DNA of 64,000 bases, taken from contig OZ241377.1 of the NCBI GenBank assembly GCA_965200615.1, positions 379,754-443,753 of the forward strand. The letters run 5' to 3'. The notes under the pieces were generated by a model. That model ran no database searches, was not told the origin of the DNA, and saw nothing but the letters and a program-made list of their open reading frames with translations. The translations under genes and the position numbers were made by a program. This stretch comes from Caldilineaceae bacterium. Lineage in GTDB: Bacteria; Chloroflexota; Anaerolineae; Caldilineales; Caldilineaceae. Positions within the stretch are counted from its first letter, which is position 1. Every line of letters starts with the position of its first letter. Of this stretch, positions 5,311-42,914 are shown in pieces.

Positions 5311-5353
5311 GTCAGCCCCAATCCACAGTCGCGATTTCAGGAGAACCCCACTC

Positions 5354-6163: not shown

Positions 6164-6173
6164 GGAGCCGCCC

Positions 6174-7439: not shown

Positions 7440-7530
7440 CGCGCGCAGATGAGGATGCGCCGCATTTCGCCAGACGGTTGTCGTCCCTGGGGCCGATAGT
7501 CGTTGCGTTAACATTCCGGGAGAGCCGCCC

Positions 7531-9908: not shown

Positions 9909-9957
9909 GGCCATCTGCAAGATCGATTCCTTGGTTGAACCCTGGTATATACGTCCC

Positions 9958-10350
9958 ATGCTCCTGATCAACTTCTCCCACCCCCTCTCCCAGCAACAGC
10001 TCGCGCAGATCAAAGCCATCACCGGCCAGCCCATCCAGCGCGCCATCAACGCCATGCCCCAATTCAACGAACAGCAGCCATTCGAGCCGCAGCTGGCCGC
10101 GCTCCTCGATCAGATCGAATTGTCGGCGGAACAGTGGCAGACCGAACCGATCCTGGTCGTTCTCCCCGCGCTGAACTTTATCGCCGGCGCGCTGCTGGCA
10201 AACCTGCACGGACGCATGGGCTACTTTCCCCATGTGGTGCGCACGCGGCCGGTGGAGGGATCCATCCCACGCCGCTTTGAAGTGGCCGAGATTCTGGACC
10301 TGCAAGCCATGCGCGCGGCCGTCCGCCGCGCCAGAACCGCGAACCATTGA
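9958..10350 (+). CDS. small CRISPR-linked accessory protein of unknown function (possibly Csx15/Csx16/Csx20-like)
   Basis: ~130-aa ORF ([24 protein letters not shown]...) packed tightly between the CARF/HEPN gene and cas6; its stop lies 1 nt before the cas6 ATG. No motif I can assign with certainty. Start uncertain (TTG 9931 or ATG 9958). Confidence 0.45.
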
Positions 10351-10351
10351 A

Positions 10352-11170: not shown

Positions 11171-11179
11171 AGTGAGCCG

Positions 11180-12211: not shown

Positions 12212-12221
12212 GAGGTACCCT

Positions 12222-12500
12222 ATGCTGGTCGTCGTAAGTTACGATGTGCCCGAAAACCGGCGGCGTGGTAGAATCGCGCAGGCGCTGCAGGACTTCGGCG
12301 GTGAGCGCGTGCAACTGTCCGTCTTCGAGTGTTATCTGACCCCGCGCAACTGGACGCGGCTCCAGGAGCGACTGGGCAAAATTGTCAATCCGGACGAAGA
12401 CAGCGTCCGCCTCTATCGCCTATGCGAGCACTGCCGGGAAAACATCCTCTTTCTGGGCTGTGCCGCGCCCATCGAAGAGCCCGGCCTGCGTATCATCTGA
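12222..12500 (+). CDS. cas2: Cas2
   Basis: [17 protein letters not shown]...RVQLSVFEC...SVRLYRLC, 92 aa. Confidence 0.9.
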
Positions 12501-12694
12501 ACGGGTTCAGCGATCACCCCTCCTCTGGCTGCTCTTTGGAAGGGGTGTTTGGTTGGGGATGTTCGCAGATCATGCAGAGGTTAGGGAAATGGGCGCAGGA
12601 ACGGTAGAAGATCGTAGTCGGTATAGGGCCAGACGGGAGATAGGATCTGATTCAGGCTATTTGTCTATCGTCCAGCGCTCCACAAAATTTGGGT
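12501..12694 (+). promoter_or_regulatory. CRISPR leader
   Basis: 194 bp between the cas2 stop and the first repeat, less GC-rich than the flanks. The degenerate repeat is at the far end of the array, so this is the leader side. Confidence 0.5.
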
Positions 12695-13110
12695 GTCAGA
12701 AAAGAACGAATCCCCGTGAGGGGATTGAAACCTTGGCATTCCACTTGTTCATAAAACACCACTGAAGAACGTCAGAAAAGAACGAATCCCCGTGAGGGGA
12801 TTGAAACCTTGGCATTCCACTTGTTCATAAAACACCACTGAAGAACGTCAGAAAAGAACGAATCCCCGTGAGGGGATTGAAACTCATTGTAGCACAACAC
12901 ACCGTGAGTTTGTCTGTACTCTGTCAGAAAAGAACGAATCCCCGTGAGGGGATTGAAACTCAGGCTGCGAGAAAAAGGCCTGCAGCCTCTTAATACCGTC
13001 AGAAAAGAACGAATCCCCGTGAGGGGATTGAAACTTACTGATACACCGTCCAATCGGGTAAAATACACTTCAAGTCAGAAAAGAATGAATCCCCGTAAGG
13101 GGTTTGAAAC
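12695..13110 (+). CRISPR. CRISPR array, 6 repeats and 5 spacers
   Basis: 37-bp repeat GTCAGAAAAGAACGAATCCCCGTGAGGGGATTGAAAC at 12695, 12771, 12847, 12923, 12998 and 13074. Spacers are 39, 39, 39, 38 and 39 nt. The last repeat is degenerate at 3 positions (GTCAGAAAAGAATGAATCCCCGTAAGGGGTTTGAAAC). Internal palindrome AATCCCC-GTGA-GGGGATT. The 3' ATTGAAAC handle implies + strand transcription. Confidence 0.95.
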
Positions 13111-19052: not shown

Positions 19053-19127
19053 TGGTACCCCCGACAGGATTCGAACCTGTGCTCCCGGCTCCGGAGGCCG
19101 ATGCTCTATCCACTGAGCTACGGGGGC
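19053..19127 (-). tRNA. tRNA-Arg (anticodon CCG), CCA encoded
   Basis: The reverse complement folds by hand into a cloverleaf: GCCCCCG-UA-GCUC-AGUGGAUA-GAGC-A-UCGGC-CUCCGGA-GCCGG-GAGC-ACAGG-UUCGAAU-CCUGU-CGGGGGU-ACCA. Confidence 0.9.
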
Positions 19128-29036: not shown

Positions 29037-29526
29037 CGACCGGTCGTACACCTCTTTTACGGCTTTGGCCGCAGCCAGCCACATCCCCGCCCTCCTGGCA
29101 ACGGGCAAGTAAGAGAACAGGGCGCTGACGGCGACACTCGCGGATCGAACCACGCGTTCCTGCGCAAGCGGTCGCAGCCGGGCGCGTGCACGGCGCCTTC
29201 TGCCCGTGTCAACCCTGTTCTTGAAACTCCCTATCGGCGAAGAAAGTAGACAAACAGGCCATTCAAAGGTAGAATGAAAGGGAATAACTGAATCCAAGGA
29301 GCGAGCCTGGCCACTGGCCCTGAGGTTTGTGAAATTGGCCGCGGCCGGAGGATGATTGGGATCCCCCTTTATTCATCCTCTGCTTGCCTTGCGCGCATAT
29401 GTTGAACTTTTTTACATAGGAGATTCTTTTCGCGCTGGGAGCTGCTGCTGCCCGGCGTTTTTGCATTAGACAAAACTTCCCGCATGCAGGCGCTTCGTCT
29501 GTATTGCTTTACAAAGGAGAGATCGA

Positions 29527-31245
29527 ATGGACCAAACGAAAATAGCCCTTGTTGAAACGGATCGTCCGCCAGAGGAGGACGCCGACACGGCGCAACTGCG
29601 GGTGATCCCACTCGGAGGCCTCGGTGGGATCGGAAAAAACATGATGGTTCTGGAGTCCGGCGAAAACATTCTCATCATTGACGCCGGCCTGATGTTCCCA
29701 GACAGCGATATGCACGGCGTGGATGTCGTGATCCCGGAGACCGAGTATCTGCTGGACCGGCTGGACTGGATTCGCGGCATCGTCCTGACGCACGGACACG
29801 AGGACCATATCGGCGCGCTGCCCTATCTGATCGACCAGGGGTTGGACGCGCCCGTCTACGCCACCGCGCTGACAAAGGGCCTGCTTCAGGGCAAGTTGTC
29901 GGAACATGGTTTGCTGGCCCAGACGGAACTGCATACGGTGACGGAAGATGATGTCATCCCCCTGGAGCCGTTTACAGTAGAGTTTTTCCATACCTGCCAC
30001 AGCTTCCCGGACAGCGTGGGGGTCAGTGTTTCCACGCCGGCCGGGCGGGTGGTCCTCACGAGCGACTACAAGTTTGATGATACGCCGGTGGATGGCAAGT
30101 TGACCGAGGTTGACAAACTGGAACGCTGGGGCGATGAGGGTGTGCTGCTGCTGCTGGGGGACAGCACGAACATCGAGACGGAAGGCAGCACGCCTAGCGA
30201 AACCAAGGTCGAGGAGACGCTTGACAGCATCTTTTCGCAGGTGAATGGACGGGTGATTCTGGCAACCTTTGCCAGCAACATCAGTCGCGTGCAGCAGATC
30301 ATCACAATTTCCCGCAAGCATGGGCGGCGGGTCGGGATGATCGGGCGCTCGATGATCAACAACGTAAAGATCGCTATCGGACTGGGCTACCTCGATATCC
30401 GGCAGGACGAGCTTTTGACCGCCAAAGAGATGGAAGAGCTGCCCTCCCACCAGGTGACGATCATCGCCACCGGCAGCCAGGGAGAACCGACCAGCGCAAT
30501 GGTGCGCATGAGCATTGGGGACCAGCGTCAGATCAGCCTGCGCAAGGGAGACACGGTCGTGCTGAGCGCGACACCGATCCCCGGCAACGAGGAGTTATTC
30601 AACCGCACTGTGGACAATCTGTACCGCCGCGGGGCCCGGGTCTTCTATCATGAACTGTCCGACGATGTACATGTGAGCGGACATGGCGGCAAGGAGGACT
30701 ACCGCCGCATGCTGGAGCTGGCGCGGCCGCGCTATTTCATCCCTGTGCATGGGGCTTACCGGCATCTTGTCCTGCATGGCGAGCTGGCTGAGGAGGTGGG
30801 CATTGCGCCTGAGAACGTTTACGTCGTCGAAGACGGGCAGGTGGTCGAGTTCGGCCATTTCGAGGATGCGACCGGGGCACGGTTGGGCGAGCATGTCAGC
30901 GCCAACCACGTCTTTGTCGACGGGTTGGGCGTGGGCGACATTGGCAGCGTCGTCCTGCGCGACCGGCGCCATTTGGGGAGCGACGGCTTCCTCGTCTGTA
31001 TCGTCGCTCTGGACGAATTCGATGGCTCGATCCTTTACGGTCCGGAGATCATCAGCCGGGGTTTTGTCTATATACGGGACAACGAGGGGTTGATTCTGCG
31101 GGCAGAGGAGATCGTGCGGAACGAGGTCAAAGGCAAGGCGGCGCCCCCGGCACTCTCCCGCCGCGTTCGCAACGCTTTGGCCAGCTTCTGCAGCAATGAG
31201 ATGGGACGGCGGCCGATGATCCTGCCAGTGGTGATTCAGGTATAG
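29527..31245 (+). CDS. rnj: ribonuclease J
   Basis: AAGGAG SD. Metallo-beta-lactamase/beta-CASP motifs: IPLGGLGGIGKNMMV, LTHGHEDHIGALPYL, GDSTN, VSGHG. Confidence 0.9.
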   Translation: MDQTKIALVETDRPPEEDADTAQLRVIPLGGLGGIGKNMMVLESGENILIIDAGLMFPDSDMHGVDVVIPETEYLLDRLDWIRGIVLTHGHEDHIGALPYLIDQGLDAPVYATALTKGLLQGKLSEHGLLAQTELHTVTEDDVIPLEPFTVEFFHTCHSFPDSVGVSVSTPAGRVVLTSDYKFDDTPVDGKLTEVDKLERWGDEGVLLLLGDSTNIETEGSTPSETKVEETLDSIFSQVNGRVILATFASNISRVQQIITISRKHGRRVGMIGRSMINNVKIAIGLGYLDIRQDELLTAKEMEELPSHQVTIIATGSQGEPTSAMVRMSIGDQRQISLRKGDTVVLSATPIPGNEELFNRTVDNLYRRGARVFYHELSDDVHVSGHGGKEDYRRMLELARPRYFIPVHGAYRHLVLHGELAEEVGIAPENVYVVEDGQVVEFGHFEDATGARLGEHVSANHVFVDGLGVGDIGSVVLRDRRHLGSDGFLVCIVALDEFDGSILYGPEIISRGFVYIRDNEGLILRAEEIVRNEVKGKAAPPALSRRVRNALASFCSNEMGRRPMILPVVIQV

Positions 31246-31559
31246 GCGGCGTTCCGCGGCCGGCCCTTTTGGAAACGAAGGCGCGGTCGCGCCGAATCCC
31301 GCCCCGCTTCGGAAAGGGCGGGTCGGGCGGACATTCCGCTGCGATAGGAAGACGCCCAACGTTCGGTTGCAAAGCGCGGGCAAAACGTTGGGTTTCAGAG
31401 CGCTGAAACATTAAAAACTGATTGGTGAAATCCGAGTTCATTGGTATAATGCGTCGGGAACGTTTGTTCTTTTCTGGCGTATCATTTAATGAACTATTGG
31501 ACTCTCAGTGGCCGGTGCGATTGCCCGCCGCGAGCCACGACCTACTTCCCGCTGCTGAT

Positions 31560-34220
31560 ATGGTAGCCAAGAGGCGTACGAAAAAAAAAGCGACTCCGCA
31601 GAAGCAGCTTTTGGACGGGTTGGCGGCGATCGCCCGCGTGGAGGTTGTCGGCCTCAGTCTCGTGTTGATCTCGGTCTTTACGCTGCTGAGCCTGCTGACC
31701 GGTTCGCGTGGCAGTGTCACAGGGCTGTGGATCGATTTCCTGCGCTACGCCACCGGTGACGGCGTGGCCGGTGTACCCTTGCTGACCGGCTTCCTTGGCT
31801 TGTGGCTGGTTTTGCGCGCCATCGAAGGACCGAAACGGCGAAGGTCCCCGTCGGGAGACGGAAGCGGGGCGGGCAGGGAGTTGCCGATTCTGCCCTGGCG
31901 GGCGCCGAGCGGCCTGCTGCTGATTTTTCTGGCATACATTGCCGCCATCACGCTGATGCTACCTCCGATGACACGGGCGGCGCGCGTCCTTGACGGTGGG
32001 GCGGGCGGCGCGCTCGGTCACTTTTTTGCCAATACACTGGCGGATGGGCTGCCCGGCTGGGGCGGGTGGACGGTGATTCTTCTGGTCGCGCTGTCGGGAC
32101 TGACGCTGCTGACCGGCCGCCGATTGTGGGACGGCCTCTGGGTTGGGGGCGGTACCGTGAGCCAGGAAATCCGGGGCGTGCTGCAAGAGTTGTGGCGGGA
32201 AGAACGACGCAAAGATCTCTTCAGAACCAGGACATTGGCCGGAAGGGAGCGGAACGAGACACACGCTCCCGTTCCTGACTCCACTCCGCTTTCCCCCTTA
32301 CGACAGGCCGGCCGCGCTGCCGAAGATACGCCGTCAATGCAGGCGGAAGAGTTTGACGGTTCTGATGGCCAATTGTCAGGGATAAGCGCCGATCGACATC
32401 TGAAAGACAGAAAAGGGAGAGTTGAACCGGCGTGGGAACTTCCGCAGCTGAGCGATATGTTGGACTTCTGGGACCGGTTGATCGACAGCGACGATCTTAT
32501 TCGCTACCGGGGCCGGCTGCTGGAGGAGACCCTGGCGCTGTTTGGCGTTCCCGCTGATTTTGAAGGGGTCAACGCCGGTCCGACCGTCACCCAATATCTG
32601 ATCCGTCCAGGCTACACCGAGCGCACTGTGCGCGGAGAGACGAAGCGCACCAAGGTCAAGGTCAGCAAGATCGCCAGCCTAAGCAACGATCTGGCGCTTG
32701 CGCTTGCCGCGCGCACGGTGCGGATCGAGGCCCCGATTCCGGGGACAAGCTACGTCGGCATCGAAGTGCCGAATACGGAAAGCAACAATGTCGGTCTGAA
32801 GGAGTTGATGGAGAGCGAGGAGTTCGATACCTTACAGTCCGGGGACCGCCTGCCCATTGCTCTGGGCGAGGACGTGCGGGGCAAGCCGGTGGTCACCGAC
32901 CTGGCGCGGATGCCCCATCTTCTGATTGCCGGCGCCACCGGAACGGGCAAGTCGGTCTGCATCAATTCGATCATCGGCTGCCTGCTTCTGACCCACACGC
33001 CGGAAACGCTGCGCCTGCTGATGATCGATCCGAAGATGGTCGAGCTGACCGTCTACAACGGGACGCCCCATCTTCTCAGCCCGGTGGTGACCGACGTGGA
33101 CCGGGCCTCAGGCGTGCTGTTCTGGTGCATCAAAGAGATGGAGCGGCGCTATCAACTGCTCAACAAGGCGGGCGTACGCGATCTGGAGCGCTTCAACGCC
33201 TATCTGCGTAAACTGGGCGAGGAGATCCTGCCATACGTCGTCGTCATCATTGACGAGATGGCCGATCTGATGATGGCCGCGCCGGAGGAGGTGGAGAAAC
33301 ATGTGATCCGCCTGGCGCAGATGGCGCGCGCGGTGGGCATTCATATGATCATCGCGACCCAGCGGCCCTCGGTCGATGTCATCACCGGCCTGATCAAGGC
33401 CAATTTCCCGGCCCGCATCGCCTTCGCCGTGACCAGCCAGATAGACAGCCGGGTGGTGCTGGATGTGCCGGGCGCAGAGAATCTGCTGGGACGGGGCGAC
33501 ATGCTGTTTATGGCGCCGGATGCGAGCAAGCTGGAGCGGCTGCAAGGCGCGTTTCTGGATGATGCGGAGACCAACCGCATCGTCCGCTACTGGCAGAATT
33601 TCCACAGTTTGGAAACTTACATCCAGGAGCACGAGGGGAAGGGACCGGGGCGAGAAGAGAACGAACAGTTCCCGCTCTTCACGCCTGACTCTCTTTCCTC
33701 ACCCGTTGAAGAGCGAGAAGTGCCGGCAGCGGAGGGTACGCTGCCGCGACGCGAAGGGGAATCTCTCCAACTCCTCGAACAGGAGGACGGGCAGAGCCCC
33801 CTGCATGATCAGACGCGGGACGGTGATGGCCGGGACGGACTATTCGACGAGGCGGTACAGGTTGTGTCGGAGGCTGGCCGGGGCTCGGTGACGATTTTGC
33901 AGCGGAAGCTGCGGGTCGGCTACAACCGTGCCAACCGTCTGGTGGAGCAGCTTGAAGCAGCCGGTATTCTGGGGCCGGACCGGGGCCGGAGCCAGGGACG
34001 GGAGGTCTATCTCAAGACCGCAGGAGAGAGTGACAAGGAGCGCGGAAAGGAACTCCCCGCACCGTTTACCGCTTCTCCACCCCTCGATCATGACAGTGGA
34101 GTCGTCAACGGTGGAACCAGCGGCAATGGATCCGTCGACAGTGGGTCCGTCGAAGGTGGGCAGGCCGAGTTGCCGCCGCCTTCTGAGCAGGACGACGCCC
34201 CGCCCCGGATCTGGATGTAG
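31560..34220 (+). CDS. ftsK: DNA translocase FtsK/SpoIIIE
   Basis: N-terminal TM segments; motor domain HLLIAGATGTGKSVCIN, VVIIDEMADLMM, IIATQRPSVDVITG; C-terminal winged-helix gamma domain (ILQRKLRVGYNRANRLVEQLE). ATG 31560 is preferred over the track start 31422. Confidence 0.9.
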   Translation: MVAKRRTKKKATPQKQLLDGLAAIARVEVVGLSLVLISVFTLLSLLTGSRGSVTGLWIDFLRYATGDGVAGVPLLTGFLGLWLVLRAIEGPKRRRSPSGDGSGAGRELPILPWRAPSGLLLIFLAYIAAITLMLPPMTRAARVLDGGAGGALGHFFANTLADGLPGWGGWTVILLVALSGLTLLTGRRLWDGLWVGGGTVSQEIRGVLQELWREERRKDLFRTRTLAGRERNETHAPVPDSTPLSPLRQAGRAAEDTPSMQAEEFDGSDGQLSGISADRHLKDRKGRVEPAWELPQLSDMLDFWDRLIDSDDLIRYRGRLLEETLALFGVPADFEGVNAGPTVTQYLIRPGYTERTVRGETKRTKVKVSKIASLSNDLALALAARTVRIEAPIPGTSYVGIEVPNTESNNVGLKELMESEEFDTLQSGDRLPIALGEDVRGKPVVTDLARMPHLLIAGATGTGKSVCINSIIGCLLLTHTPETLRLLMIDPKMVELTVYNGTPHLLSPVVTDVDRASGVLFWCIKEMERRYQLLNKAGVRDLERFNAYLRKLGEEILPYVVVIIDEMADLMMAAPEEVEKHVIRLAQMARAVGIHMIIATQRPSVDVITGLIKANFPARIAFAVTSQIDSRVVLDVPGAENLLGRGDMLFMAPDASKLERLQGAFLDDAETNRIVRYWQNFHSLETYIQEHEGKGPGREENEQFPLFTPDSLSSPVEEREVPAAEGTLPRREGESLQLLEQEDGQSPLHDQTRDGDGRDGLFDEAVQVVSEAGRGSVTILQRKLRVGYNRANRLVEQLEAAGILGPDRGRSQGREVYLKTAGESDKERGKELPAPFTASPPLDHDSGVVNGGTSGNGSVDSGSVEGGQAELPPPSEQDDAPPRIWM

Positions 34221-34253
34221 CGTTGCGTTCGATCCACAACAGGAGAACTCCCG

Positions 34254-35150
34254 ATGAGACAGAGCGTGTCCCCCGCGCGCCCCGCGTGGCTGTCTGACGA
34301 GATTTACCCCTTCGAGAGCAGATTCTTCACGACTCCATCCGGCCACGAGATGCACTACATCGACGAAGACGCGGGGGAGCCGATTGTTTTTCTGCATGGC
34401 AATCCCACCTGGTCTTTCGAATTTCAGCATCTGATCCGGGATCTTCGGTCCCAATACCGATGTATCGCGCCCGACCATATCGGTTTCGGCCTGTCGGCGC
34501 GCAGCCAGCGTTCCGCCGACTACCGGCCTGAAGTCCATGCGGATGCGGCCGCGGCTTTGCTCGACCATCTCGACGTGCAGGACGCGACCCTGTACCTGGT
34601 GGATTGGGGTGGGCCTATCGGGTTGGATTTCGCGTGCAAGCATCCGGAACGGGTGAAGCGGCTTGTGATCACGAACACCTGGTGCTGGCCGGTAGGACGC
34701 GATCCGCGCTATGTGATGTTCAGCTTTTTCATGTCGAGCTGGCTGGGCCAGTACCTGATCAAGCGCCACAATTTTTTCGTGAACAGGGTGCTGCCAATGG
34801 CGGTCGCCTCAAAGGAGATTCTGACTCCGGAGGTGATGGCGCATTATCGCAATGCGCAACCGACGCCGGAGGCGCGGTCCGCGTGCGCGGCCTTTCCGAG
34901 GCACATCGTCGGCGCGGGCGACTGGCTGGGGGCGATCTGGGATGATCGGGCTGCGTTCACGGTGAAACCGGCGCTGATCTTCTGGGGCTTTAAGGACATC
35001 GCCTTTCGGGAGAAGGAACTGAACCGGTGGAAGGCGGAGCTGGCGGATTTTGAGGTGCACGAGTTCAGGGATTGCGGACATTTCTTGGCGGAGGAAGCGC
35101 CGGAGCGGATGCTGCCTGCGCTGCACGCCTTCATGGAGCGGACGCGGTAG
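34254..35150 (+). CDS. alpha/beta hydrolase (haloalkane-dehalogenase-like)
   Basis: Motifs VFLHGNPTWSFEFQHLI, APDHIGFGLS, LVDWGGPIGL (nucleophile elbow with Asp), CGHFLAEEAP. Confidence 0.75.
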   Translation: MRQSVSPARPAWLSDEIYPFESRFFTTPSGHEMHYIDEDAGEPIVFLHGNPTWSFEFQHLIRDLRSQYRCIAPDHIGFGLSARSQRSADYRPEVHADAAAALLDHLDVQDATLYLVDWGGPIGLDFACKHPERVKRLVITNTWCWPVGRDPRYVMFSFFMSSWLGQYLIKRHNFFVNRVLPMAVASKEILTPEVMAHYRNAQPTPEARSACAAFPRHIVGAGDWLGAIWDDRAAFTVKPALIFWGFKDIAFREKELNRWKAELADFEVHEFRDCGHFLAEEAPERMLPALHAFMERTR

Positions 35151-35246
35151 AGCAATGATATAATCACGGCGTTAGCGGCCCATTGGGAGCTGCCTTTGCA
35201 GACGGTCGGACACGGCAATGCGACCGTCTTGCGCAAGGGAACTGTC

Positions 35247-36608
35247 ATGGATGAAATCAGATTGAAAGACTACCGCTGCTTCCGGGAAAAGCAGGTGGCC
35301 CGGTTAGCGCCCTTAACTCTTCTGGTGGGAGAGAACAGCACAGGCAAGACCTCCTTCCTGGCCATAATTCGCGCCCTTTGGGAGCTCGCCAACGACTACA
35401 GGATCCCGGACTTCAAAGAAGAGCCGTATGATCTTGGCAGTTTCGACGAGATCGCTCACTTTCGAGGCGGGCGGGGCGGCAGAGCCGAAACCTTCGTTGC
35501 GGGATTCAGTACGACGAGACCGAATTCACAGAAAGGGACAAGTAAGCCTTTATCCAAGAAATTCGACGCAACATTCGGTAAGGATGGCGCAGTTCCGGTC
35601 CCTGTTGGAAGGCGATTTGTCTTTGGCGACACTTGGATTGAGGAACGCTTTGAGGAAAACATCGAGAAAAACCATATCTATGTTCTCAGAGCTGCGACAC
35701 ACAGGGGGAGTTGGGAAAAGAGGGTGAATAGAGGAATACGATACTCTCTTCAAGATCATACGATTCCTCCGCACGTTCACTTTAGCAATTCTTCAATTCT
35801 GGGGAAAAACCAAGCAGGGGACCCGGAGTATGAACCGCTGGAAGGCTCTCCTCCAATTAGCTCTGAAGACAAAGAGATTCTCCGAGAATTTCCCTGGTTT
35901 GATCTTTCGTTATCCGGAGTGCGCCCATTCGCCAGCGCACCGGTGCGTTCCAAGCCGAGTCGCACTTACGACCCATCTCGTTTCACCCGGGACCCCGAAG
36001 GTGACTATGTGCCAATGTATCTGGCAGACGTGTTCACGCGGCGCAATAGAGTGTGGGCTGAGCTCAAGAGACGCTTACAGGAATTTGGCAAGGCCGCGGG
36101 CCTGTTTGATGAAATCTCCATAAAGCGGTTAGGCCAGAGAGATAGCGAACCATTCCAGATTCAGATCAGAAAATCTGGTAACAACCTAAAGGGCCCTTTA
36201 CGCAATCTCATAGACGTCGGATACGGAGTCAGCCAAGCGCTCTTGATGATTACCGAACTGCTGCGACCGGATGCGCCGCCTCTGTTCCTCTTGCAGCAGC
36301 CAGAAGTACACCTTCACCCCAGCGCGCAGGCTGCGCTAGGCAGTCTGTTCTGTCAGATTGCAGGCAAGGAGCGTCAGATTATCGTCGAGACGCACAGTGA
36401 TCACCTGTTAGATCGTGTGCGTATGGATGTCCGCGACGGGAACGGCGCCTTGAATCCCGAAGATGTGTCGATCCTCTTCTTTGAACGGAACGAACTGGAT
36501 GTGCAGATCCATTCATTGGGACTTGACGGAGAGGGCAACGTGCTGAACGCGCCCGACAGCTACCGCCGATTCTTCATGGAAGAAACGACCAGGTCTTTGG
36601 GGTGGTAG
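35247..36608 (+). CDS. ABC/OLD-like AAA ATPase (AAA_15/21-type with DUF3696-like C-terminus)
   Basis: Walker A LLVGENSTGKTS. Motifs ...RPFASAPVRSKPSRTYDP..., IDVGYGVSQALLMITELL, a Walker-B-like LFLLQQPEVHLHPSAQ, and the H-loop IIVETHSDHLLDRV. C-terminal tail ...GNVLNAPDSYRRFF. Codon usage is visibly less GC-biased than the flanks. Confidence 0.75.
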   Translation: MDEIRLKDYRCFREKQVARLAPLTLLVGENSTGKTSFLAIIRALWELANDYRIPDFKEEPYDLGSFDEIAHFRGGRGGRAETFVAGFSTTRPNSQKGTSKPLSKKFDATFGKDGAVPVPVGRRFVFGDTWIEERFEENIEKNHIYVLRAATHRGSWEKRVNRGIRYSLQDHTIPPHVHFSNSSILGKNQAGDPEYEPLEGSPPISSEDKEILREFPWFDLSLSGVRPFASAPVRSKPSRTYDPSRFTRDPEGDYVPMYLADVFTRRNRVWAELKRRLQEFGKAAGLFDEISIKRLGQRDSEPFQIQIRKSGNNLKGPLRNLIDVGYGVSQALLMITELLRPDAPPLFLLQQPEVHLHPSAQAALGSLFCQIAGKERQIIVETHSDHLLDRVRMDVRDGNGALNPEDVSILFFERNELDVQIHSLGLDGEGNVLNAPDSYRRFFMEETTRSLGW

Positions 36609-36611
36609 CAA

Positions 36612-37076
36612 GTGTGCGCGATTGTTGACGTAAACGTTTCCCACGAAGTTTTCGGTTCCAATCGGCCTGAGGCGGGTGAGAGGTTTCTCAGATGGCTCAA
36701 TTCTGGCTCAATGCGCCTTGTGGTCGGGAGAAAGCTTCTTGACGAGCTTAAGAGTGGAAAAGCCCAGGGATGGCTACGACAAGCGATTCTTGCTGGGAAG
36801 GTCCGACAGGAGACAACAAGCGCAGTGGACGAGAGGGAGGAGAAGCTCCTTCAGGAGGAGACCTGCCGCTCCAATGACACACATGTCATCGCGTTAGCTC
36901 AGATCAGCGGCGCGCGCCTTCTGTACTCAAATGACATGGCATTACACAAGGACTTCAGAAATAAGAGTCTGATCGATAAGCCAAGGGGGAAAGTGTATTC
37001 GACAAATAAGCGCAAGGATTTCACGAGCGCCCAAGAAAAACTGCTGAATGATAGAAACCTGTGCCGGAGTCGATGA
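36612..37076 (+). CDS. PIN-like domain protein (putative nuclease), operonic with the ATPase
   Basis: GTG start 3 nt after the ATPase stop. Acidic residues have PIN-like spacing: CAIVDVNV (N-terminus), LLDELKSG, SNDTHVIALAQISGARLLYSNDMALHKDF. 154 aa. Assignment by pattern only. Confidence 0.5.
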   Translation: MCAIVDVNVSHEVFGSNRPEAGERFLRWLNSGSMRLVVGRKLLDELKSGKAQGWLRQAILAGKVRQETTSAVDEREEKLLQEETCRSNDTHVIALAQISGARLLYSNDMALHKDFRNKSLIDKPRGKVYSTNKRKDFTSAQEKLLNDRNLCRSR

Positions 37077-37167
37077 ACCGCCAGTTTCGGGCCGCGCTGA
37101 GTCCGGAGCAACATAGCGTAGCGTGGCATCCTCTCAAAATCACTGACTAAGAACCGAAAACTTTCGG

Positions 37168-37869
37168 ATGGATCGCAAACGGATCGCCGCAACTGTTGTC
37201 GGGCTGGCCATCGCGGCCGGTGTCGGGCTGGCTATTCTCACCTTCACCAGCCGCGTCCCGGACGCCGACAGCCTGCCGGATGAGGCCGCGGCGGGGCTTG
37301 AACAGTTGAAGACAGTTCAGGGACGGCTGCAGCTGGGAAAAGATGACCAGATGCTCGAGTACGAGTTGTGGGTACAGCGGCCGCGGCATCTGCGGGCAGA
37401 GGCGGAACTGGAAGGGCTGGACCGCAAGGCCGTCTTTATTATGACGTTCAACGAGAAAGAGGCGTGGACGTATGACCCGGTGCTGAACCTGGCCACCGTC
37501 ACCGACCGGACCGAAGGCGCGGCGGCGGCAGGTACGCGCTTTGGTACCTCATTTCTGGAGACGATGCCGGATGATGTGATGGCCGCGCTGCAGGCGGGTG
37601 AGCTGCAGATTGTCGGCGAGGAGGCGGTTGCCGGTCGGAATGCGCTGCGCGTGCAGGTGCTGCTGCCGCCTGGGCAGAGTCCACTGGAAGAGGCAGGGGA
37701 GCAGTTGACCGTCTGGCTGGACATGAGTACTTTCTATCCCCTGGCCATCGAAGGGGATACGGGCTTCCACATGCGGTTCGACTTCATCATATTCGATGAA
37801 GAGATCGATCCGCGGACATTTGTCTTTTTCCCTCCACCGGGCGCGGCCGTGCGCCGGATCGGTGAGTAA
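37168..37869 (+). CDS. membrane-anchored LolA-like/DUF4367-like protein (tentative)
   Basis: N-terminal TM segment (IAATVVGLAIAAGVGLAIL). The rest resembles lipoprotein-sorting-fold proteins. Weak assignment. Confidence 0.4.
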   Translation: MDRKRIAATVVGLAIAAGVGLAILTFTSRVPDADSLPDEAAAGLEQLKTVQGRLQLGKDDQMLEYELWVQRPRHLRAEAELEGLDRKAVFIMTFNEKEAWTYDPVLNLATVTDRTEGAAAAGTRFGTSFLETMPDDVMAALQAGELQIVGEEAVAGRNALRVQVLLPPGQSPLEEAGEQLTVWLDMSTFYPLAIEGDTGFHMRFDFIIFDEEIDPRTFVFFPPPGAAVRRIGE

Positions 37870-39160
37870 CGGGCCGCCGCGCGCGTCCGCGCGCGCAGAG
37901 ACGCCGCGGGGGTTTGCCCGCTTCCGCAATATCCTGGCGGCCTGTATCGCCACTCGCCTGGCAATCGATACAACGACACAGCTATTCTTTCCCTACCTGC
38001 AGACGGTCGCTCTGGGGATGAGGATGGATATCGTTGTCCTGGGCCGTCTCGTCAGCCTGCGCAGCCTGGCGGGATTGAGCGCTCCGCTGTTCGGCACGGC
38101 GGCCGACAGCTATGGCTATCGCCGCATTATGCGCCTGTCGCTGCTGTTGACGACGGCGGGCATGTTTCTGCTCGGCAGCGGCGCAGGCATCTGGTCTGTT
38201 GTCGTCGGCATGATCGTTTCAGGAGCAGGGCTGACCGGCTTCCTGCCGACCTGCCAGGCGTACATCAGTGCGCGACTGCCGTTTGCGCAGCGGGCGCGGG
38301 GCATTGGGGTACTGGAGTACGCCTGGGCACTGGCAGGCATTGTCGGTCTGCCGCTGATGGGCTTTCTCTTTGGCCGCTTCAGTTGGCAACTCCCGTTCTT
38401 CGTGCTGGGCGGGGCGATGCTGGCAGGCTGGGTTTTGATTGGATTTTTGCCGGAAGCGACGGCCGGCGTACCGGTTGTGGACCGCGACAGGGCGCGGCGT
38501 CGGGAGGCGGCCCGGAAGAGGCTGAGGAGCCGCTCTTTCACTCCCCTCCTTGTATCCCTCCCCCCTCTGCGTGCGCAGACAGTCGCCGGCCTTTTCGATC
38601 TCGGGCCCAACTGGCGGGCCGCTGTGGCCGTCATCAGCGCCAACGCCCTCTTCTATTTCAGCCAGGTCCACATCCTGATTGCCCACGGCGCCTGGCTGGA
38701 AACCGAGTACGGCCTGGTCCCGGAAACCTTGGGTCTGGTGGCATTTGCGCAGGGCGCCGCGGACCTGTGCGGTAGTGTGCTTGTCTCGCTGATCACCGAC
38801 CGGATCGGCAAGAAGCGGGCCGTGCAGCTCGGCATGCTGGGCTCGCTGCTGGTCTACGTCTCTATGCCGTTGATCAATGTGGGACTGGCGCCGGTCGTTG
38901 CCGCGATGGTGCTGCTGCGCTTCGTGTTCGAGTACGGGATTGTCAGCGCCATCGCCCTGATCAGCGAACAGGCGCCGGACCGGCGGGGCAAGCTCATCTC
39001 GCTCTCGGTGGCGCTCAATCTGCTGGGCTCCACTTTCAGCGGATTTACGGGACCGTGGATGTATACCCGCTTTGGCGTGTGGGGGCTGGGGCCGGTGGCG
39101 GCGGTGGGGACGCTTACGGCGTTTGTGCTGTTGACGGTTTGGGGACGCGAGTCGGCCTGA
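37862..39160 (+). CDS. MFS transporter (paralog A)
   Basis: Multiple TM segments and MFS-like loops (FGTAADSYGYRRIM, SEQAPDRRGK). Start uncertain (GTG 37862 overlaps the upstream stop; the track ORF opens at 37796). Confidence 0.7.
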   Translation: MSNGPPRASARAETPRGFARFRNILAACIATRLAIDTTTQLFFPYLQTVALGMRMDIVVLGRLVSLRSLAGLSAPLFGTAADSYGYRRIMRLSLLLTTAGMFLLGSGAGIWSVVVGMIVSGAGLTGFLPTCQAYISARLPFAQRARGIGVLEYAWALAGIVGLPLMGFLFGRFSWQLPFFVLGGAMLAGWVLIGFLPEATAGVPVVDRDRARRREAARKRLRSRSFTPLLVSLPPLRAQTVAGLFDLGPNWRAAVAVISANALFYFSQVHILIAHGAWLETEYGLVPETLGLVAFAQGAADLCGSVLVSLITDRIGKKRAVQLGMLGSLLVYVSMPLINVGLAPVVAAMVLLRFVFEYGIVSAIALISEQAPDRRGKLISLSVALNLLGSTFSGFTGPWMYTRFGVWGLGPVAAVGTLTAFVLLTVWGRESA

Positions 39161-39455
39161 CGACTCTCAATGCCGTATAAAACAGGGGGCAAACCATGTC
39201 AATTCTCTACCGACCTGAGGACGGAGTAGCGGGTGATTTCATCCCCTTCTTTTGGGAGGGAGACTACCACCTTTTCTACATTAAAGAATATGGGGCTGAA
39301 ACCGGCCATGGCCCGGGCATGCCCTGGTTTCACCTCGTGACGCGCGACTTTGTCAAATTCGAGGATTGGGGTGAGGCGATCACGCATGGAACGCCTGATG
39401 CGCAGGACGTCATAATCGGGACAGGGTCCGTGGTCGCGGGGGACGGTATCTTTTA

Positions 39456-40323
39456 GAGGCTGTTTGAAAAGTAAAGGCTGTCGGCCAAATTGTGGTATAC
39501 GTAGTCTCTGTGAAAACAAAACGATACCCAACAGATTTGACTGACAGCCAGTGGCTTATTATCCAGCATCTGATTCCCGCAGCCAAACCGGGCGGGCGAC
39601 CACGCAGCCTGGATATGCGTCTGGTGGTTGATGCCATTCTCTACCTGACTGTGGGTGGCATCCAGTGGCGGATGCTGCCGAGTGATTTTCCGCCGTGGCA
39701 GAGGGCAGAGTGTTTACACCTACTTCAGGCAGTGGCGGGACGATGGCGCCTGGCGCAGGTTGCATGACACGCTCAGAGTGCGGGTTCGTCATCGAAGCGG
39801 ACGACACAAGCATCCAACGGCTGGCAGTATCGATAGTCAGACAGTCAAGACTGGCCATACACCGGCAGGTGTGCGAGGCTACGATGGCGGTAAACGCATC
39901 ACGGGACGGAAACGGCATCTTCTTGTCGATACGCTGGGACTCACATTGGCCGTCCTGGTCACTGCTGCCGACCTGCCTGACCGCGATGGGGCACGGCAAC
40001 TGCTCAGACGAGGCTGCGGTTTCGGCCAGAAACTGCGTCTTATCTGGGTTGACGGCGCCTATCGCGGCTCTTTGCAGAGATGGGTTGCGCAGCGTTTTCG
40101 CTTCCGCCTTCAACCTGTCCTCCGCCCGCAAGAACAAAAAGGTTTCTCCGTATTGCCCCGTCGTTGGGTGGTGGAGCGCACCTTCGCTTGGCTTGGCCTC
40201 AATCGTCGCCTCTGTAAAGACTATGAACGACTGCCCGAAAGCAGTGTCGCCTTTATCCATATCGCTATGATTCGTCTCATGGTACGCCGCCTGGCACCCA
40301 ATTGACCCTTTTCAAACAGCTTC
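39456..40323 (+). mobile_element. IS5-family insertion sequence (IS427/IS1031-like size), 868 bp
   Basis: Terminal inverted repeats GAGGCTGTTTGAAAAG (39456-) and CTTTTCAAACAGCTTC (-40323), 15/16 matching. Flanked by a direct TTA (39453-39455 and 40324-40326). Encodes a DDE transposase. Confidence 0.85.
39492..40305 (+). pseudogene. IS5-family DDE transposase (DUF4096 N-terminus plus DDE_Tnp_1-like), frame broken by a 7-bp tandem duplication
   Basis: Frame 0: ..[29 protein letters not shown]. Frame 1: [59 protein letters not shown] is repeated at 39697-39703 and 39704-39710. Deleting one copy fuses PPWQ-SVYTYF in frame. Confidence 0.8.
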
Positions 40324-41507
40324 TTACATTTACTTTACGGGTATCAATCGATCCTTCGCCGGAACCGGCAAGGCGGCTCAGGTGGTTATGCGCGCGACCA
40401 GTTCGGACCTGCGTACGTGGCACAAGGACCCGGACTTCAAGTTCTTCCCGCCTACAGAGCTTGGGTATGAACTGGACGACTGGCGCGATCCCTTTGTCTT
40501 CTGGAACGAGGCGAAAGAGGCGTACTGGATGCTGATGACGGCGCGCACGGACCGTGGGCCGGTGCGCAACCGGGGCTGTATCGGCTTGGCCGTCAGCTCC
40601 GACCTGGTGACGTGGGAGGGGCGGCCGCCGCTGTGGGAGCCGGGTGAGGTGTGGGCGCACCCCTGTCCGGACCTGTTCCATCATGGCGAACTGTGGTACC
40701 TGGTCTACTCGGTCTCGAGGGAGTGGATCGCCACCCATTACCGGATGGCGCAGAGCTTGGAAGGACCGTGGACCTCTGCGGCCGACGACATGTTCGACGG
40801 TCTTGCCTACGGCGCCGCCAAGACGGCGGGAGACGGGTCGCGGCGCTATTCCTTTGGCTGGCTGCCGGTGCGCGCGGGCGAGTCGGACGACGGCGAGTGG
40901 TTGTGGGGCGGCAATCTGGTCGTGCACGAAGTTGTGCCGCAGCCGGACGGCTCTTTGAGCGTACGCATGCCTGAGACGGTCGCGCGCGCCTTTGACAAGC
41001 CGGCGGGGATTCTGCCGCAACCGGTGCTCGGCAGTTGGGAGGTCGAGGGGCAGAGCGCCAGGACTTCGGCGGAGGGCCGCTACGCGCTGATGACGCTGGG
41101 GGAGATGCCTGATGAGTGCCTGATCGAGACAACCGTCACGTTCGCTGCTGGGCTGACCAACTGCGGCCTGCTCCTGCGCGCCAGCGATGATCTGGAGTCC
41201 TACTACCAAGTACGTCTGGAGCCGGCCAGGAACAGGGTCGTGCTGGACCGCTGGTCGCCGCAGTTCAGCATCACCACGACGAACCCGCCCTTCATGCTCG
41301 AACGCAGGGTCATCCTGGAGCCGGACAGACCGTTGAAGGTGCAGCTGCTTGTCGACGGCACGGCCCTGGTCATCTATGTCGATGAGCGGGTGGCGCTTTC
41401 CAGCCGCATCTATGACCGGCGCGGGGGCGCGCTGGGCCTCTTCGCGACCGAGGGTGAGGTCCGCTTCGACGGAATCAGAATGGCGACCAGATGATTTGCC
41501 GGGGCGA

Positions 41508-42914
41508 GTGACTGTGTGGCAACTGTTTTCTTCCCGTTTCCGGGCGCGAACATGGACCTCATCCACGGCTGACAGGCAACAGTGCGCGGAGCCGTTGCGT
41601 GGCTTCTCCCGCTTCCGCCATATCCTGGCCGCCTGTGTGGCTACCCGGATCGTCGTCGACACATCGGTCCAGCTTTTCTACTCCTTTCTACAGGTCATTG
41701 CGCTGGGAATGGCCCTGGATGTTGTCGTTCTGGGCCGTCTGATGAGCCTGCGCAGCGCGGTGGGGCTGAGCGCGCCGCTGTTCGGCAGCGCGGCGGACCG
41801 CTACGGCTACCTGCGCGTGATGCGTCTGGCCCTGGTTTTGGCCGCGGCGGGCTCCTTCCTGCTGGGAAGCGGCGCCGGGTTCTGGTCGGTTGCGGCCGGG
41901 ATGGTCCTGTCAGGTGTGGGGTTGACCGGCTTCTTGCCGACCCTCCATGCCTATATCAGCGCGCAGCTGCCCTTTGCGCAGCGGGCGCGCGGCATCGGCA
42001 CCCTGGAGTACTCGTGGGCACTGGCAGGGATCTTCGGCCTTTCGCTTATGGGCCTCCTGTTCGACCGTTTCAGCTGGCAGCTTCCCTTCATGGTTCTGGG
42101 GGTAGCGATACTCGCCAGTTGGGCAGTCCTCGGCTTTCTGCCGAGAGTACCGCGAGGTGCGGACCCCGCACTGGCGGGCGGCAGCGAAAAGGCTGTGCCG
42201 GCCCAGGCGGCCGTAACAGGTGAAGAGGTCGATTCAGGGAAACGCATTGAGAAAGGGGTTGCGCCCTCTCTTGCCGATCACTTCTCCCACCTCGCTCATG
42301 GCGCTGTTCGGCGTATCGCCGGGCTCCTCGATCTCGGCCCAAATTGGCTCTCGGCCTACATGGTCATCGGCGCGAACTGCCTCTTTCTTTTCAGCCAGGG
42401 CCATGTCCTCATTGCTCACGGTGTCTGGTTGCAGACCGAATACGGCCTTACGGCAACTGCTTTGGGCCTGGTGGCCCTGTTGCAGGGAGCGGCGGACCTG
42501 GCGGGGGCTGTTCTGGTCTCGCTGATCGCGGACCGGGTCGGCAAGAAGCGATCATTTCAGGCAGGCATTCTCGGTTCAGCGCTGGTATACCTCTCTCTCC
42601 CCATAGTCAATATCGGGCTGTTGCCGGTCGTCGCGGCATTGCTGCTGATGCGATTTACATTTGAGTACGGCCTCGTCAGCGCCATAGCCCTGGTCAGCGA
42701 ACAGGCGCCGGACCGGCGAGGCAAAGTGATGTCGCTGGCGGTGGCGATCAATTTGCTCGGCTCTACACTTACCGGTTTTACCGGACCGTTGATGTACGCC
42801 CGTTTCGGCGTGTGGGGGTTGGGACCGGTGTCGGCCGTCTGTACGCTGGCGGCATTCGTGCTGTTGACGGTCTGGGGACGCGAGTCGGCGGAAACTGCAA
42901 TGGCTAGTGAATAA
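41508..42914 (+). CDS. MFS transporter (paralog B)
   Basis: Collinear with paralog A along its length (e.g. FSRFRHILAACVATR, FGSAADRYGYLRVM, SEQAPDRRGK, ARFGVWGLGPV..FVLLTVWGRESA). Start uncertain (GTG 41508 or 41514). Confidence 0.7.
   Translation: MTVWQLFSSRFRARTWTSSTADRQQCAEPLRGFSRFRHILAACVATRIVVDTSVQLFYSFLQVIALGMALDVVVLGRLMSLRSAVGLSAPLFGSAADRYGYLRVMRLALVLAAAGSFLLGSGAGFWSVAAGMVLSGVGLTGFLPTLHAYISAQLPFAQRARGIGTLEYSWALAGIFGLSLMGLLFDRFSWQLPFMVLGVAILASWAVLGFLPRVPRGADPALAGGSEKAVPAQAAVTGEEVDSGKRIEKGVAPSLADHFSHLAHGAVRRIAGLLDLGPNWLSAYMVIGANCLFLFSQGHVLIAHGVWLQTEYGLTATALGLVALLQGAADLAGAVLVSLIADRVGKKRSFQAGILGSALVYLSLPIVNIGLLPVVAALLLMRFTFEYGLVSAIALVSEQAPDRRGKVMSLAVAINLLGSTLTGFTGPLMYARFGVWGLGPVSAVCTLAAFVLLTVWGRESAETAMASE

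Follow-up and report, generated by a model that had tools for sequence, protein, structure and literature searches.

An ABC ATPase-PIN gene pair in Caldilineaceae as a probable two-gene conflict module related to HEC-03 and the Menshen core

We argue that two adjacent genes in a 64,000-nucleotide stretch of Caldilineaceae DNA (hereafter the window), which encode an ABC ATPase and a small PIN-fold protein, probably form a self-contained conflict module, anti-phage or abortive-infection, of the kind that joins an ABC ATPase to a nuclease effector. The pair is most closely related to HEC-03 and to the core of Menshen, NsnB-NsnC. Judged by sequence family the pair belongs to neither, and it is best read as a diverged variant of the HEC-03/Menshen-core kind that at present escapes detection. 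The first-pass annotation had stated that no named system pairs this type of ATPase with a PIN-like effector, which was wrong, since HEC-03 and NsnB-NsnC of Menshen both do so.

The preference for a role in defence or abortive infection came from the embedding of the pair in Hma systems. In eight distinct genomes, it lies on the same strand between HmaB (PADLOC, 1e-100) and HmaC (PADLOC, 1e-92). HEC-03, or Hma-embedded candidate 03, was itself found through embedding in Hma systems (Payne et al. 2024, bioRxiv 10.1101/2024.01.29.577857). As the embedding of the present pair is seen in several phyla, it gives independent support to 'guilt by embedding' as a route to the discovery of defence genes.

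The two genes and their locus

Both open reading frames are real, and they are separated by 3 nt as first described. The ORF of gene 1 spans 35196..36608 (+) and encodes 470 aa when counted from the first TTG. Its true start is most likely the ATG at 35247, which gives a probable extent of 35247..36608 (+) and an OLD/SMC-type ABC ATPase of 453 aa. This start was chosen because AAGGGA is found 6 nt upstream of it, because the database protein 100% identical to gene 1 has 453 aa, and because ATGGATGAAAT is kept in eight related genomes; homologues are mostly 440-470 aa long. Gene 2 (36612..37076, +) has a GTG start and encodes a stand-alone PIN-fold protein of 154 aa. The junction reads TAG-CAA-GTG, and the two genes share a common reading frame. 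All the motifs quoted in the first-pass annotation (GENSTGKT, LLQQPEVHLHP, ETHSDH, IVDVNV, LLDEL, SNDTHVIALA and YSNDMAL) are present.

The cassette had also been described as less GC-rich than its flanks. This is borne out by sliding GC (0.50-0.55 over 35250-37250 and 0.60-0.65 on either side), by gene GC (0.53 for gene 1 and 0.52 for gene 2, against 0.60-0.65 for five flanking genes) and by GC3 (0.59 for both genes, against 0.74-0.79 for the same five). RNase J, FtsK, a hydrolase and an MFS transporter are its neighbours in the window. The upstream neighbour is indeed an alpha/beta hydrolase (PF00561, 5e-28); the 'LolA-like' label of the downstream neighbour is unconfirmed, since a Pfam search with this 233-aa protein gave no match. 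Direct and inverted repeats, sought around the cassette as mobile-element boundaries, were short chance-level matches only, and no tRNA lies near it, the sole one found being at 19053-19127.

Upstream of gene 1, an extended -10-like promoter element, TGaTATAAT, can be read directly at 35156..35164 (+), 83 nt before the gene start, and its TATAAT is invariant in eight syntenic Caldilineaceae loci. The consensus scan called no full promoter at gene 1 because it found no -35, and the promoter and terminator counts of the scan were not above those of shuffled sequence. We take TGaTATAAT as a candidate promoter element of gene 1, as a lead only. The 5' leader at 35165..35246 (+) is conserved and is predicted to form a hairpin in which CCUUU is base-paired to the Shine-Dalgarno AAGGG. 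In the alignment of eight genomes, which covers the end of the upstream gene, the intergenic leader and the start of gene 1, the mean column identity is 87%. The leader has an MFE of -35.7 kcal/mol (z = -2.0); its consensus fold has 26 pairs, in which the changes are one-sided (G-U) only, with 0 compensatory double changes. On this weak evidence, the predicted hairpin is a candidate only.

Gene 1 is of the AAA_15/AAA_21 kind, as had been proposed. It matches Pfam AAA_15 (5e-20) and AAA_21 (2e-19), and the structure matches agree: OLD (6p74) is matched in the PDB at 4e-9, and the AF2 model (pLDDT 73.7, pTM 0.79) finds SMC, Rad50, GajA, PtuA and OLD heads in Foldseek with probability 1.0. Among the PADLOC profiles, NsnB scores best (9e-43), followed by PDC-M55A (1e-29) and the HEC-03 ATPase model (1e-25). 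Residue conservation was assessed in 120 homologues. In the Walker A motif GENSTGKT (35328..35351, +; residues 28-35), G28, N30, S31, G33 and K34 are 100% and T35 is 99% conserved, and in the H-loop ETHSDH (36387..36404, +; residues 381-386) conservation is 100% from E381 to D385. The Walker B region LLQQPEVHLHP (36288..36320, +; residues 348-358) is degenerate, and the earlier reading of it as non-canonical holds: Gln350-Gln351 stand in place of the acidic pair, and Q350, Q351, P352 and E353 are all 100% conserved. It aligns with IIEEPEMYLHP of Thermus OLD (6p74) and with FMEQPEIHLHP of the HEC-03 ATPase.

The DUF3696-like tail claimed for gene 1 stands in part. PF12476 is annotated on several close homologues (P0163, P0165, P0167, P0169 and P0226), but gene 1 itself, with a marginal match at 36450..36557 (+), falls below the cut-off (2.3e-4; 21.7 bits against 22). 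In the AF2 model the tail comprises a beta-hairpin (407-426) and a helix (437-452). The least conserved part of the ATPase is a variable, beta-rich insert at about residues 81-220, where conservation is 0.35-0.60 compared with 0.8-0.96 in the core; this insert is a candidate sensor.

That gene 2 is PIN-like is supported by its fold and by its conserved acidic residues. The AF2 model (pLDDT 89.8, pTM 0.86) has nearly all of its best Foldseek PDB matches among PIN/VapC structures (1w8i, 5x3t_B, 3zvk, 7vwo), with a probability of about 1.0, TM of only 0.47-0.62 and E of 3e-3 to 1e-2. The putative catalytic residues, all on the + strand, are D6 (36627-36629), E45 (36744-36746), D89 (36876-36878) and D108 (36933-36935). 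In 119 sequences D6, D89, D108 and D114 are 100% and E45 is 97% conserved. Thus, gene 2 has the fold and the four conserved acidic residues of the PIN superfamily, with a score against Pfam PIN (PF01850) of 20 bits (1.1e-3), below the gathering cut-off of 23.6.

An unlikely alternative, though the one that survives best, is a toxin-antitoxin or addiction module without a specific role against phage, in which gene 2 would be a VapC-like PIN toxin and the ATPase an unusually large proteinaceous antitoxin, and which would serve locus stabilisation or stress response. In structure gene 2 is most like VapC toxins, one homologue bears the NCBI annotation of a VapC family toxin, a tight two-gene operon at scattered chromosomal sites with low GC fits toxin-antitoxin biology, and HEC-03 appeared toxic under IPTG induction (bioRxiv 10.1101/2024.01.29.577857). 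However, there is no VapB-type antitoxin at the locus, and the 3-nt gap has no room for a VapB ORF between the genes. Moreover, a passive antitoxin would not need the strongly conserved nucleotide-binding motifs of a 453-aa ABC ATPase, and the Hma embedding and the precedent of HEC-03 favour defence. The toxin-antitoxin and defence readings overlap, as PARIS-like systems are also toxin-antitoxin-like.

Linkage, distribution and inheritance

The question of whether the two genes are conserved neighbours has a clear answer: in 78 of the 80 genome loci, which represent about a dozen phyla, the ATPase gene immediately precedes the PIN gene and has the same orientation. The gap between them is most commonly 3 nt and lies between -1 and +9 nt in 67 of the 78 loci; a more distant PIN protein (P0499) has the same ATPase partner 3 nt upstream. 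No conserved third gene, whether an NsnA-like sensor or a small antitoxin, was found in the 78 loci, where the largest neighbour cluster accounts for 12. At 75 of 75 loci the GC of the cassette is lower than that of its flanks, with a mean difference of 7.7 points.

The family of gene 2 comprises 1818 clusters at 50% identity, and its occurrence is at least 474 confirmed matches in 185,579 species genomes, which is a lower bound. The host genomes listed are those of uncultured Chloroflexota, Latescibacterota and others, many with names that suggest sponge symbionts. As gene 2 matches no model in PADLOC-DB v2.0.0, a PIN family of this size lies in a detection gap, and defence counts in such uncultured bacteria probably miss the pair.

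The surroundings of the pair vary. At locus L006 it adjoins HsdR, an AAA_15/DUF4276 pair and Fic, and at locus L087 it adjoins DndB, a SNF2 helicase and an SBD-HNH protein; in some loci PARIS-like pairs stand next to it as separate cassettes. The two nearest genes per side, taken over 36 loci with no baseline, are a mixed set in which metabolic genes prevail and DNA methylases and ATPases form a minority. We would like to point out that metabolic rather than defence genes as the most immediate neighbours count against a defence reading. So does the lack of phage, plasmid or viral-contig relatives, none having been found for gene 2 in IMG/VR viral contigs, PLSDB or INPHARED.

Horizontal acquisition, which the first-pass annotation had proposed from codon usage, is supported by the lower GC across loci; a recent arrival is not, since at least nine Caldilineaceae contigs carry the pair at one and the same site. 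Retention at one site across diverged Caldilineaceae genomes is unusually stable for a defence system, and counts against the defence reading. One could instead regard the two genes as a housekeeping pair for RNA processing or quality control, inherited vertically in Caldilineaceae beside RNase J and FtsK. We consider this improbable, although the shared site agrees with it, as do the sequence divergence of the cassette, which is on a par with that of the housekeeping genes around it, the conserved promoter-like element and leader, and the metabolic genes that make up most neighbours in other phyla. Against it, the genomic surroundings are wholly different from phylum to phylum, GC is below that of the flanks at every locus compared, the family is patchy among species genomes, decayed and split copies exist, and within Caldilineaceae the identity of the cassette does not track that of the flanks. 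Taken together, these observations are the pattern of accessory genes and not of core genes.

A proposed mechanism

How the conflict module could work is suggested by its relatives. The scheme starts from what is observed directly, namely which domains the proteins have, how well their motifs and catalytic residues are conserved, the obligate adjacency, the absence of a conserved third gene and the Hma embedding; by analogy we infer that the two proteins form a complex, what triggers the system, that the target is RNA, and what becomes of the cell. The ATPase would oligomerise via its ABC heads and bind ATP through the intact Walker A motif and H-loop. As the acidic pair of Walker B is Gln-Gln, ATP hydrolysis by gene 1 is probably slow or absent. 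The DUF3696-like tail would keep the PIN protein inactive until a phage-derived cue, sensed by the beta-rich insert at about residues 81-220, altered the nucleotide or oligomer state. The PIN protein would then be released or activated and, with its D-E-D-D metal site, could cut RNA (tRNA, rRNA or mRNA), so that the infected cell stops growing. PIN domains can also act as DNA or flap nucleases, so that RNA is no more than a presumed target of gene 2. The Gln-Gln Walker B could also mean a dead ATPase instead of a switch.

It is conceivable, as a more tentative extension, that the pair is a minimal, NsnA-independent 'Menshen core' that is ancestral to Menshen. In such a core, the Gln-Gln ATPase would sense infection via the insert and, as a switch that works by ATP binding, would free an active PIN RNase; later, in Menshen, the PIN would have become an inactive docking domain with other nucleases appended. 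The module would be widespread and horizontally shared among genomes with sponge-symbiont-like names. We hold this scenario to be possible but doubtful.

Comparison with known systems

HEC-03 is an experimentally validated pair of a DUF3696 ABC ATPase and a VapC-like PIN (Pseudomonas cichorii WP_025259138.1 and WP_025259137.1), and phage protection that needs both genes has been shown for this P. cichorii system only (Payne et al. 2024, bioRxiv 10.1101/2024.01.29.577857). Both HEC-03 and the present pair are two-gene operons with the ATPase first, and both are embedded in Hma systems. The HEC-03 ATPase is likewise of ABC type, has about 460 aa and is annotated as DUF3696-containing; it shares with gene 1 the ...QPE(I/V)HLHPS... 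Walker B region and the E(S/T)HS(D/E)H H-loop. The gene directly downstream encodes a VapC-like PIN that stands alone and has about 155 aa, compared with 154 aa here, and an alignment of the two PIN families shows their catalytic residues to be colinear.

The sequences are nevertheless far apart. The HEC-03 ATPase and gene 1 have 30% identity over 179 aa (E 4e-17), confined to the C-terminal half and the P-loop, and the score of gene 1 on PDLC04148, the HEC-03 ATPase model, is 88 bits, over the C-terminal third only, compared with 765 bits for the true HEC-03 ATPase. Gene 2 does not match the HEC-03 PIN model PDLC04147, on which a true HEC-03 PIN scores 284 bits, nor does it match the HEC-03 PIN in BLASTP. 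At the sequence level, the likeness of the two PIN proteins appears to be that of superfamily only. Profile-sequence and profile-profile (hhalign) comparisons between them gave only a weak match (E about 0.006, probability about 6%), too little to claim direct homology. The Walker B pair is Gln-Gln in gene 1 and Glu-Gln in HEC-03; the conserved cysteines are C2 and C151 in gene 2 and C23, C27 and C150 in the HEC-03 PIN; and the hosts named for the HEC-03 PIN family are mostly Pseudomonas and Burkholderia, in contrast to the uncultured phyla that carry the present pair. Thus, the pair has the ATPase with a DUF3696-type tail and the downstream PIN of HEC-03, but not its family-level PADLOC profiles.

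Menshen (NsnA-NsnB-NsnC) was reportedly described by Millman et al. 2022. NsnC begins with a PIN-like domain that is inactive and ends with a nuclease or toxin domain, and in AF3 models the PIN-like domain is held between two NsnB DUF3696 tails (PMC12065111). The NsnB profile is the best PADLOC match of gene 1, and the two proteins have in common an ABC fold of OLD type, a DUF3696 tail and a degenerate Walker B, which reads EN in NsnB and QQ in gene 1. In both systems, the partner directly downstream opens with a PIN-fold domain. Unlike Menshen, NsnA (ParB-DUF262 plus ParBDB) is not found in the window or in related loci, DUF262 being absent among the listed neighbour families; gene 2 is a PIN only, without the extra C-terminal nuclease of NsnC; and gene 2 keeps D6, E45, D89 and D108, whereas the inPIN domains of NsnC have lost the D-E-D-D residues. 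The pair therefore has the features of NsnB without an upstream NsnA or an NsnC fusion. That it is a largely non-functional remnant of a three-gene Menshen, with NsnA lost and NsnC stripped of its C-terminal nuclease, is very hard to credit: the NsnB match (9e-43), the PIN-like opening of NsnC and the degenerate Walker B of both ATPases would fit, but the pair is kept in 78 of 80 loci without DUF262 or any other third gene, gene 2 retains the D-E-D-D residues lost in Menshen inPIN, and the family has many members and is strongly constrained.

Other systems share the layout of the pair but not its effector. In PARIS (AriA-AriB) and AbiL-type systems, an AAA_15/21 ABC ATPase is also followed by a small nuclease, and the PARIS ATPase keeps the nuclease caged until it senses a phage protein (PMC12065111). 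Their effector is a Toprim/DUF4276 nuclease, whereas the fold of gene 2 is that of a PIN and neither Toprim nor DUF4276 is matched, and AriA models score gene 1 lower (PADLOC, 1e-22). In Septu (PtuA-PtuB) and retron Ec78, the ABC ATPase forms an oligomer and the nuclease is bound between the C-terminal domains of an ATPase dimer (PMC12065111). PtuA is a structural neighbour of gene 1 in Foldseek, but the effector there is an HNH nuclease and the sequence likeness to gene 1 does not extend beyond the P-loop region. In its fold and acidic active site gene 2 is similar to the VapC RNases of type II VapBC modules, but its partner is a large upstream ATPase and not VapB. PDC-M55, the second-best ATPase match, was considered and rejected, being a three-gene cassette with no PDC model matched by gene 2. 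As PADLOC fails to recognise gene 2, the pair cannot just be assigned to a named system. The ABC ATPase classification of Krishnan et al. 2020 could already include ATPase-PIN associations.

The pair is probably a large, unlabelled branch of a known kind of anti-virus system, and it opens no new category, since its architecture and likely logic are already known. Comparison of the Gln-Gln, Glu-Gln and Glu-Asn forms of Walker B could reveal whether these ATPases act as ATP-binding switches rather than motors. Sitting between HEC-03 and Menshen, the pair allows an active, stand-alone PIN to be compared with the inactive docking PIN of NsnC.

The gene pair and its surroundings

The first-pass annotation had picked out window 35196-37076, from sequence alone, as a candidate defence module of an ATPase and a PIN-like protein. 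Both open reading frames it described are present on the plus strand: gene 1, for the ATPase, at 35196..36608 (470 aa counted from the first TTG) and gene 2, for the PIN protein, at 36612..37076 (154 aa, GTG start). Gene 1 most likely starts at the ATG at 35247, giving 453 aa, because AAGGGA is placed 6 nt 5' of this codon, a database protein with 100% identity to the product has 453 aa (most homologues have 440-470 aa), and the context of the ATG is kept in an alignment of eight related genomes. The genes are separated by 3 nt and share a frame, the junction TAG-CAA-GTG (36606-36614) consisting of one stop and one sense codon, so that read-through of the stop codon would yield an ATPase-PIN fusion. 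The same in-frame junction is seen in 36 of 78 related loci.

As had been noted, the cassette is lower in GC than its flanks: sliding GC is 0.50-0.55 against 0.60-0.65 around it, and GC3 is 0.59 in both genes against 0.74-0.79 across five flanking genes. The upstream neighbour is the expected alpha/beta hydrolase gene, no Pfam match was found for the 233-aa protein encoded downstream, the putative LolA-like product of the first-pass annotation, and the whole neighbourhood is closest to Caldilineaceae (Chloroflexota) MAGs. An 83-nt leader comes after a perfect extended -10-like element, TGaTATAAT (35156-35246 together). An alignment of eight Caldilineaceae genomes across this intergenic region has a mean column identity of 87%. 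A hairpin is predicted (z = -2.0) in which CCUUU and the Shine-Dalgarno AAGGG pair, but no compensatory changes were found in it among these genomes. This hairpin may hold translation of the cassette low. Further downstream, an IS5-family element (DUF4096 and DDE_Tnp_1; two overlapping ORFs, 39492-40305) interrupts a GH32 glycoside hydrolase gene (39196-41494; N-terminal fragment 39196-39456, the rest 40382-41494), on either side of which are two paralogous MFS transporter genes (37796-39160 and 41349-42914) with long identical motifs common to their N-terminal regions.

The ATPase and the PIN protein

All motifs quoted for the two proteins in the first-pass annotation were found, and the assignment of gene 1 to the AAA_15/21 kind holds (Pfam AAA_15, 5e-20; AAA_21, 2e-19). 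The proposed DUF3696-like tail fared less clearly, as the gene 1 match falls slightly below the cut-off, but several close homologues carry PF12476. The sole significant solved sequence relative is the Thermus OLD nuclease (6p74, 4e-9), and the AF2 model (pLDDT 73.7, pTM 0.79) matches the ATPase heads of SMC, Rad50, GajA, PtuA, retron Eco8 and OLD with probability 1.0. Over 120 homologues sharing 59% identity or more, Walker A residues G28, N30, S31, G33 and K34 are invariant (T35, 99%), as is the H-loop ETHSD. The Walker B region, LLQQPEVHLHP, is non-canonical as claimed, and its Q350, Q351, P352, E353, H355, L356, H357 and P358 are also invariant. This region aligns with IIEEPEMYLHP of OLD and FMEQPEIHLHP of the ATPase of HEC-03 (Hma-embedded candidate 03), and Gln-Gln therefore takes the place of both the acidic residue of Walker B and the catalytic glutamate. 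Since E-to-Q mutants of ABC ATPases trap the ATP-bound dimer, we infer that the gene 1 ATPase would bind ATP and hydrolyse it little. Its least conserved stretch is a beta-rich insert at residues 81-220 (0.35-0.60, against 0.8-0.96 for the core).

That gene 2 encodes a PIN-like protein was borne out by structure prediction. The Pfam PIN score of 20 bits is under the 23.6 threshold and no PADLOC or NCBIfam model matched; the AF2 model is confident (pLDDT 89.8, pTM 0.86), and PIN/VapC proteins account for nearly all of its top PDB matches, at a probability of about 1.0 and with modest TM scores (0.47-0.62; E 3e-3 to 1e-2). Among 119 homologues, E45 is kept in 97% and D6, D89, D108 and D114 in all, which is the PIN D-E-D-D pattern. 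Two cysteines at opposite ends of the protein, C2 (36615-36617) and C151 (37062-37064), are essentially invariant and might form a disulfide or bind a metal; the invariant set differs in the HEC-03 PIN family, where it is C23, C27 and C150, with H153 nearly invariant. An exhaustive profile search collected 1818, 1246 and 217 clusters at 50% identity (E <=1e-3, <=1e-10 and <=1e-30, respectively), and stand-alone proteins of 110-190 aa make up nearly all of the 150 matches listed.

Linkage and genomic context

Relatives of gene 2 are encoded in at least 474 genomes, scanned at one genome per species. The two genes proved to be conserved neighbours, with an ATPase homologue immediately 5' of the PIN gene on the same strand in 78 of the 80 best loci. 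One exception has the PIN gene at a contig edge; the other, L084 (148-8465), is the sole split pair, in which some 6.4 kb of genes on the opposite strand separate the ATPase (148-1545) and PIN (8001-8465) genes. The commonest gap is 3 nt (36/78 loci), 67/78 gaps are -1 to +9 nt, and the same ATPase partner precedes a more remote PIN, P0499, by 3 nt. A decayed, fused copy is seen in L089 (4529-5840), with ATPase fragments called as 163-aa and 279-aa proteins, the latter with the PIN at residues 128-277. No conserved third gene was found among the neighbours of the 78 loci, the biggest neighbour cluster occurring in 12 of them.

In at least nine Caldilineaceae contigs the pair occupies one site, in the order RNase J, FtsK, hydrolase, pair, 233-aa gene, MFS (L001, L002 and L007-L013, syntenic with window 29500-39200), and cassette GC3 is low in every one (about 0.48-0.61, against 0.72-0.84 for flanks). 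Allelic exchange of the cassette at this fixed locus is hinted at because ATPase identity to the window does not follow flank identity: the ATPase is 71% identical in L010, despite its closer flanks, and 87-88% in L001 and L009, whose flanks are more distant. Measured over 75 loci, cassette GC is below that of the flanks in every one, with a mean difference of 7.7 points.

Hosts of the pair include Chloroflexota, Latescibacterota, Gemmatimonadota, Binatia, Rhodothermales, Nitrospirota, Nitrospinota, Alpha- and Gammaproteobacteria, Spirochaetia, Entotheonella, Acidobacteriota and Verrucomicrobiota. Among the hosts of loci L007-L086, many bear names that we take to point to symbionts of marine sponges (Entotheonella, Spongiisociaceae, SB06xx, CAR/RHO bins, Latescibacterota, Binatia), and sponge microbiomes may be enriched for the family. 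Searches of viral contigs, plasmids and phage genomes yielded no relative of gene 2. The two nearest genes per side in 36 loci are heterogeneous and mostly metabolic, with a minority of DNA methylases and ATPases. In eight distinct genomes (L022, L051, L055, L064, L066, L073, L079, L086; about 500-13100) the pair lies between HmaB (DUF1156 methylase, PADLOC 1e-100) and HmaC (DUF499 ATPase, 1e-92) on the same strand; the Hma genes of L022 are fragmentary. The HmaB-HmaC gap often also holds a second AAA_15/21 ATPase cassette, which has DUF4276 in L006/L022. Embedding in Hma is the context that led to the discovery of HEC-03 (Payne et al. 2024, bioRxiv 10.1101/2024.01.29.577857). Two further loci look like defence islands, the pair adjoining HsdR, an AAA_15/DUF4276 pair and Fic in L006, and DndB, an SNF2 helicase and an SBD-HNH protein in L087.

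Possible function and relation to known systems

The embedding in Hma in eight genomes makes the defence role suggested by the first-pass annotation a reasonable reading. To the observed parts list, conservation, linkage and context of the pair we add a proposed mechanism, argued by analogy from PARIS, Septu and the modelled Menshen complex. An ATP-bound ATPase oligomer would keep the PIN inactive via its C-terminal tail; a phage cue acting on the variable insert would shift the nucleotide or oligomer state; and the PIN, then freed or activated, would cleave RNA and arrest the infected cell. A plain toxin-antitoxin module would overlap with this defence reading and leaves the conserved nucleotide-binding motifs unexplained. 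A housekeeping role is at odds with the patchy distribution, variable context and low GC of the pair.

The claim that no named system pairs such an ATPase with a PIN-like effector did not survive. HEC-03 of Pseudomonas cichorii, whose architecture matches that of the pair, encodes first an ABC ATPase with a DUF3696 annotation and then a VapC-like PIN of 157 aa; its defence needs both genes, and IPTG was left out by the authors owing to apparent toxicity (Payne et al. 2024). Menshen has a sensor, NsnA (ParB-DUF262), and an ABC ATPase of OLD type, NsnB, which carries a DUF3696 tail and has EN where Walker B would read DE; its third protein, NsnC, joins a nuclease to an inactive PIN-like domain that is modelled between two NsnB tails (PMC12065111).

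Judged by sequence, the pair is in neither family. The gene 1 ATPase scores 145 bits on the PADLOC NsnB model and 102 bits on PDC-M55A, on which the true HEC-03 ATPase scores 177 and 126 bits; on the HEC-03 ATPase model (PDLC04148) the gene 1 ATPase reaches 88 bits, against 765 bits for the HEC-03 protein. Against its own model, PDLC04147, the true HEC-03 PIN reaches 284 bits, whereas the gene 2 PIN has no PADLOC match, and the two PIN families, although colinear in alignment with catalytic residues matched, reach only E 0.006 and a probability of 6%. PADLOC-DB v2.0.0 names PDLC04147 and PDLC04148 the other way round from the preprint, 'HEC-03A' (159 positions) being the PIN and 'HEC-03B' (458 positions) the ATPase. 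PDC-M55 is a three-gene cassette, unlike the two-gene pair. Since the pair lacks NsnA, and gene 2 retains the catalytic residues whereas the NsnC PIN-like domain is inactive, two defining features of Menshen are missing; that the pair is a decayed Menshen is at odds with its strong constraint and active-site conservation. We rate the pair as a divergent form of a kind of system already known, one that escapes detection at present and for which precedent exists.
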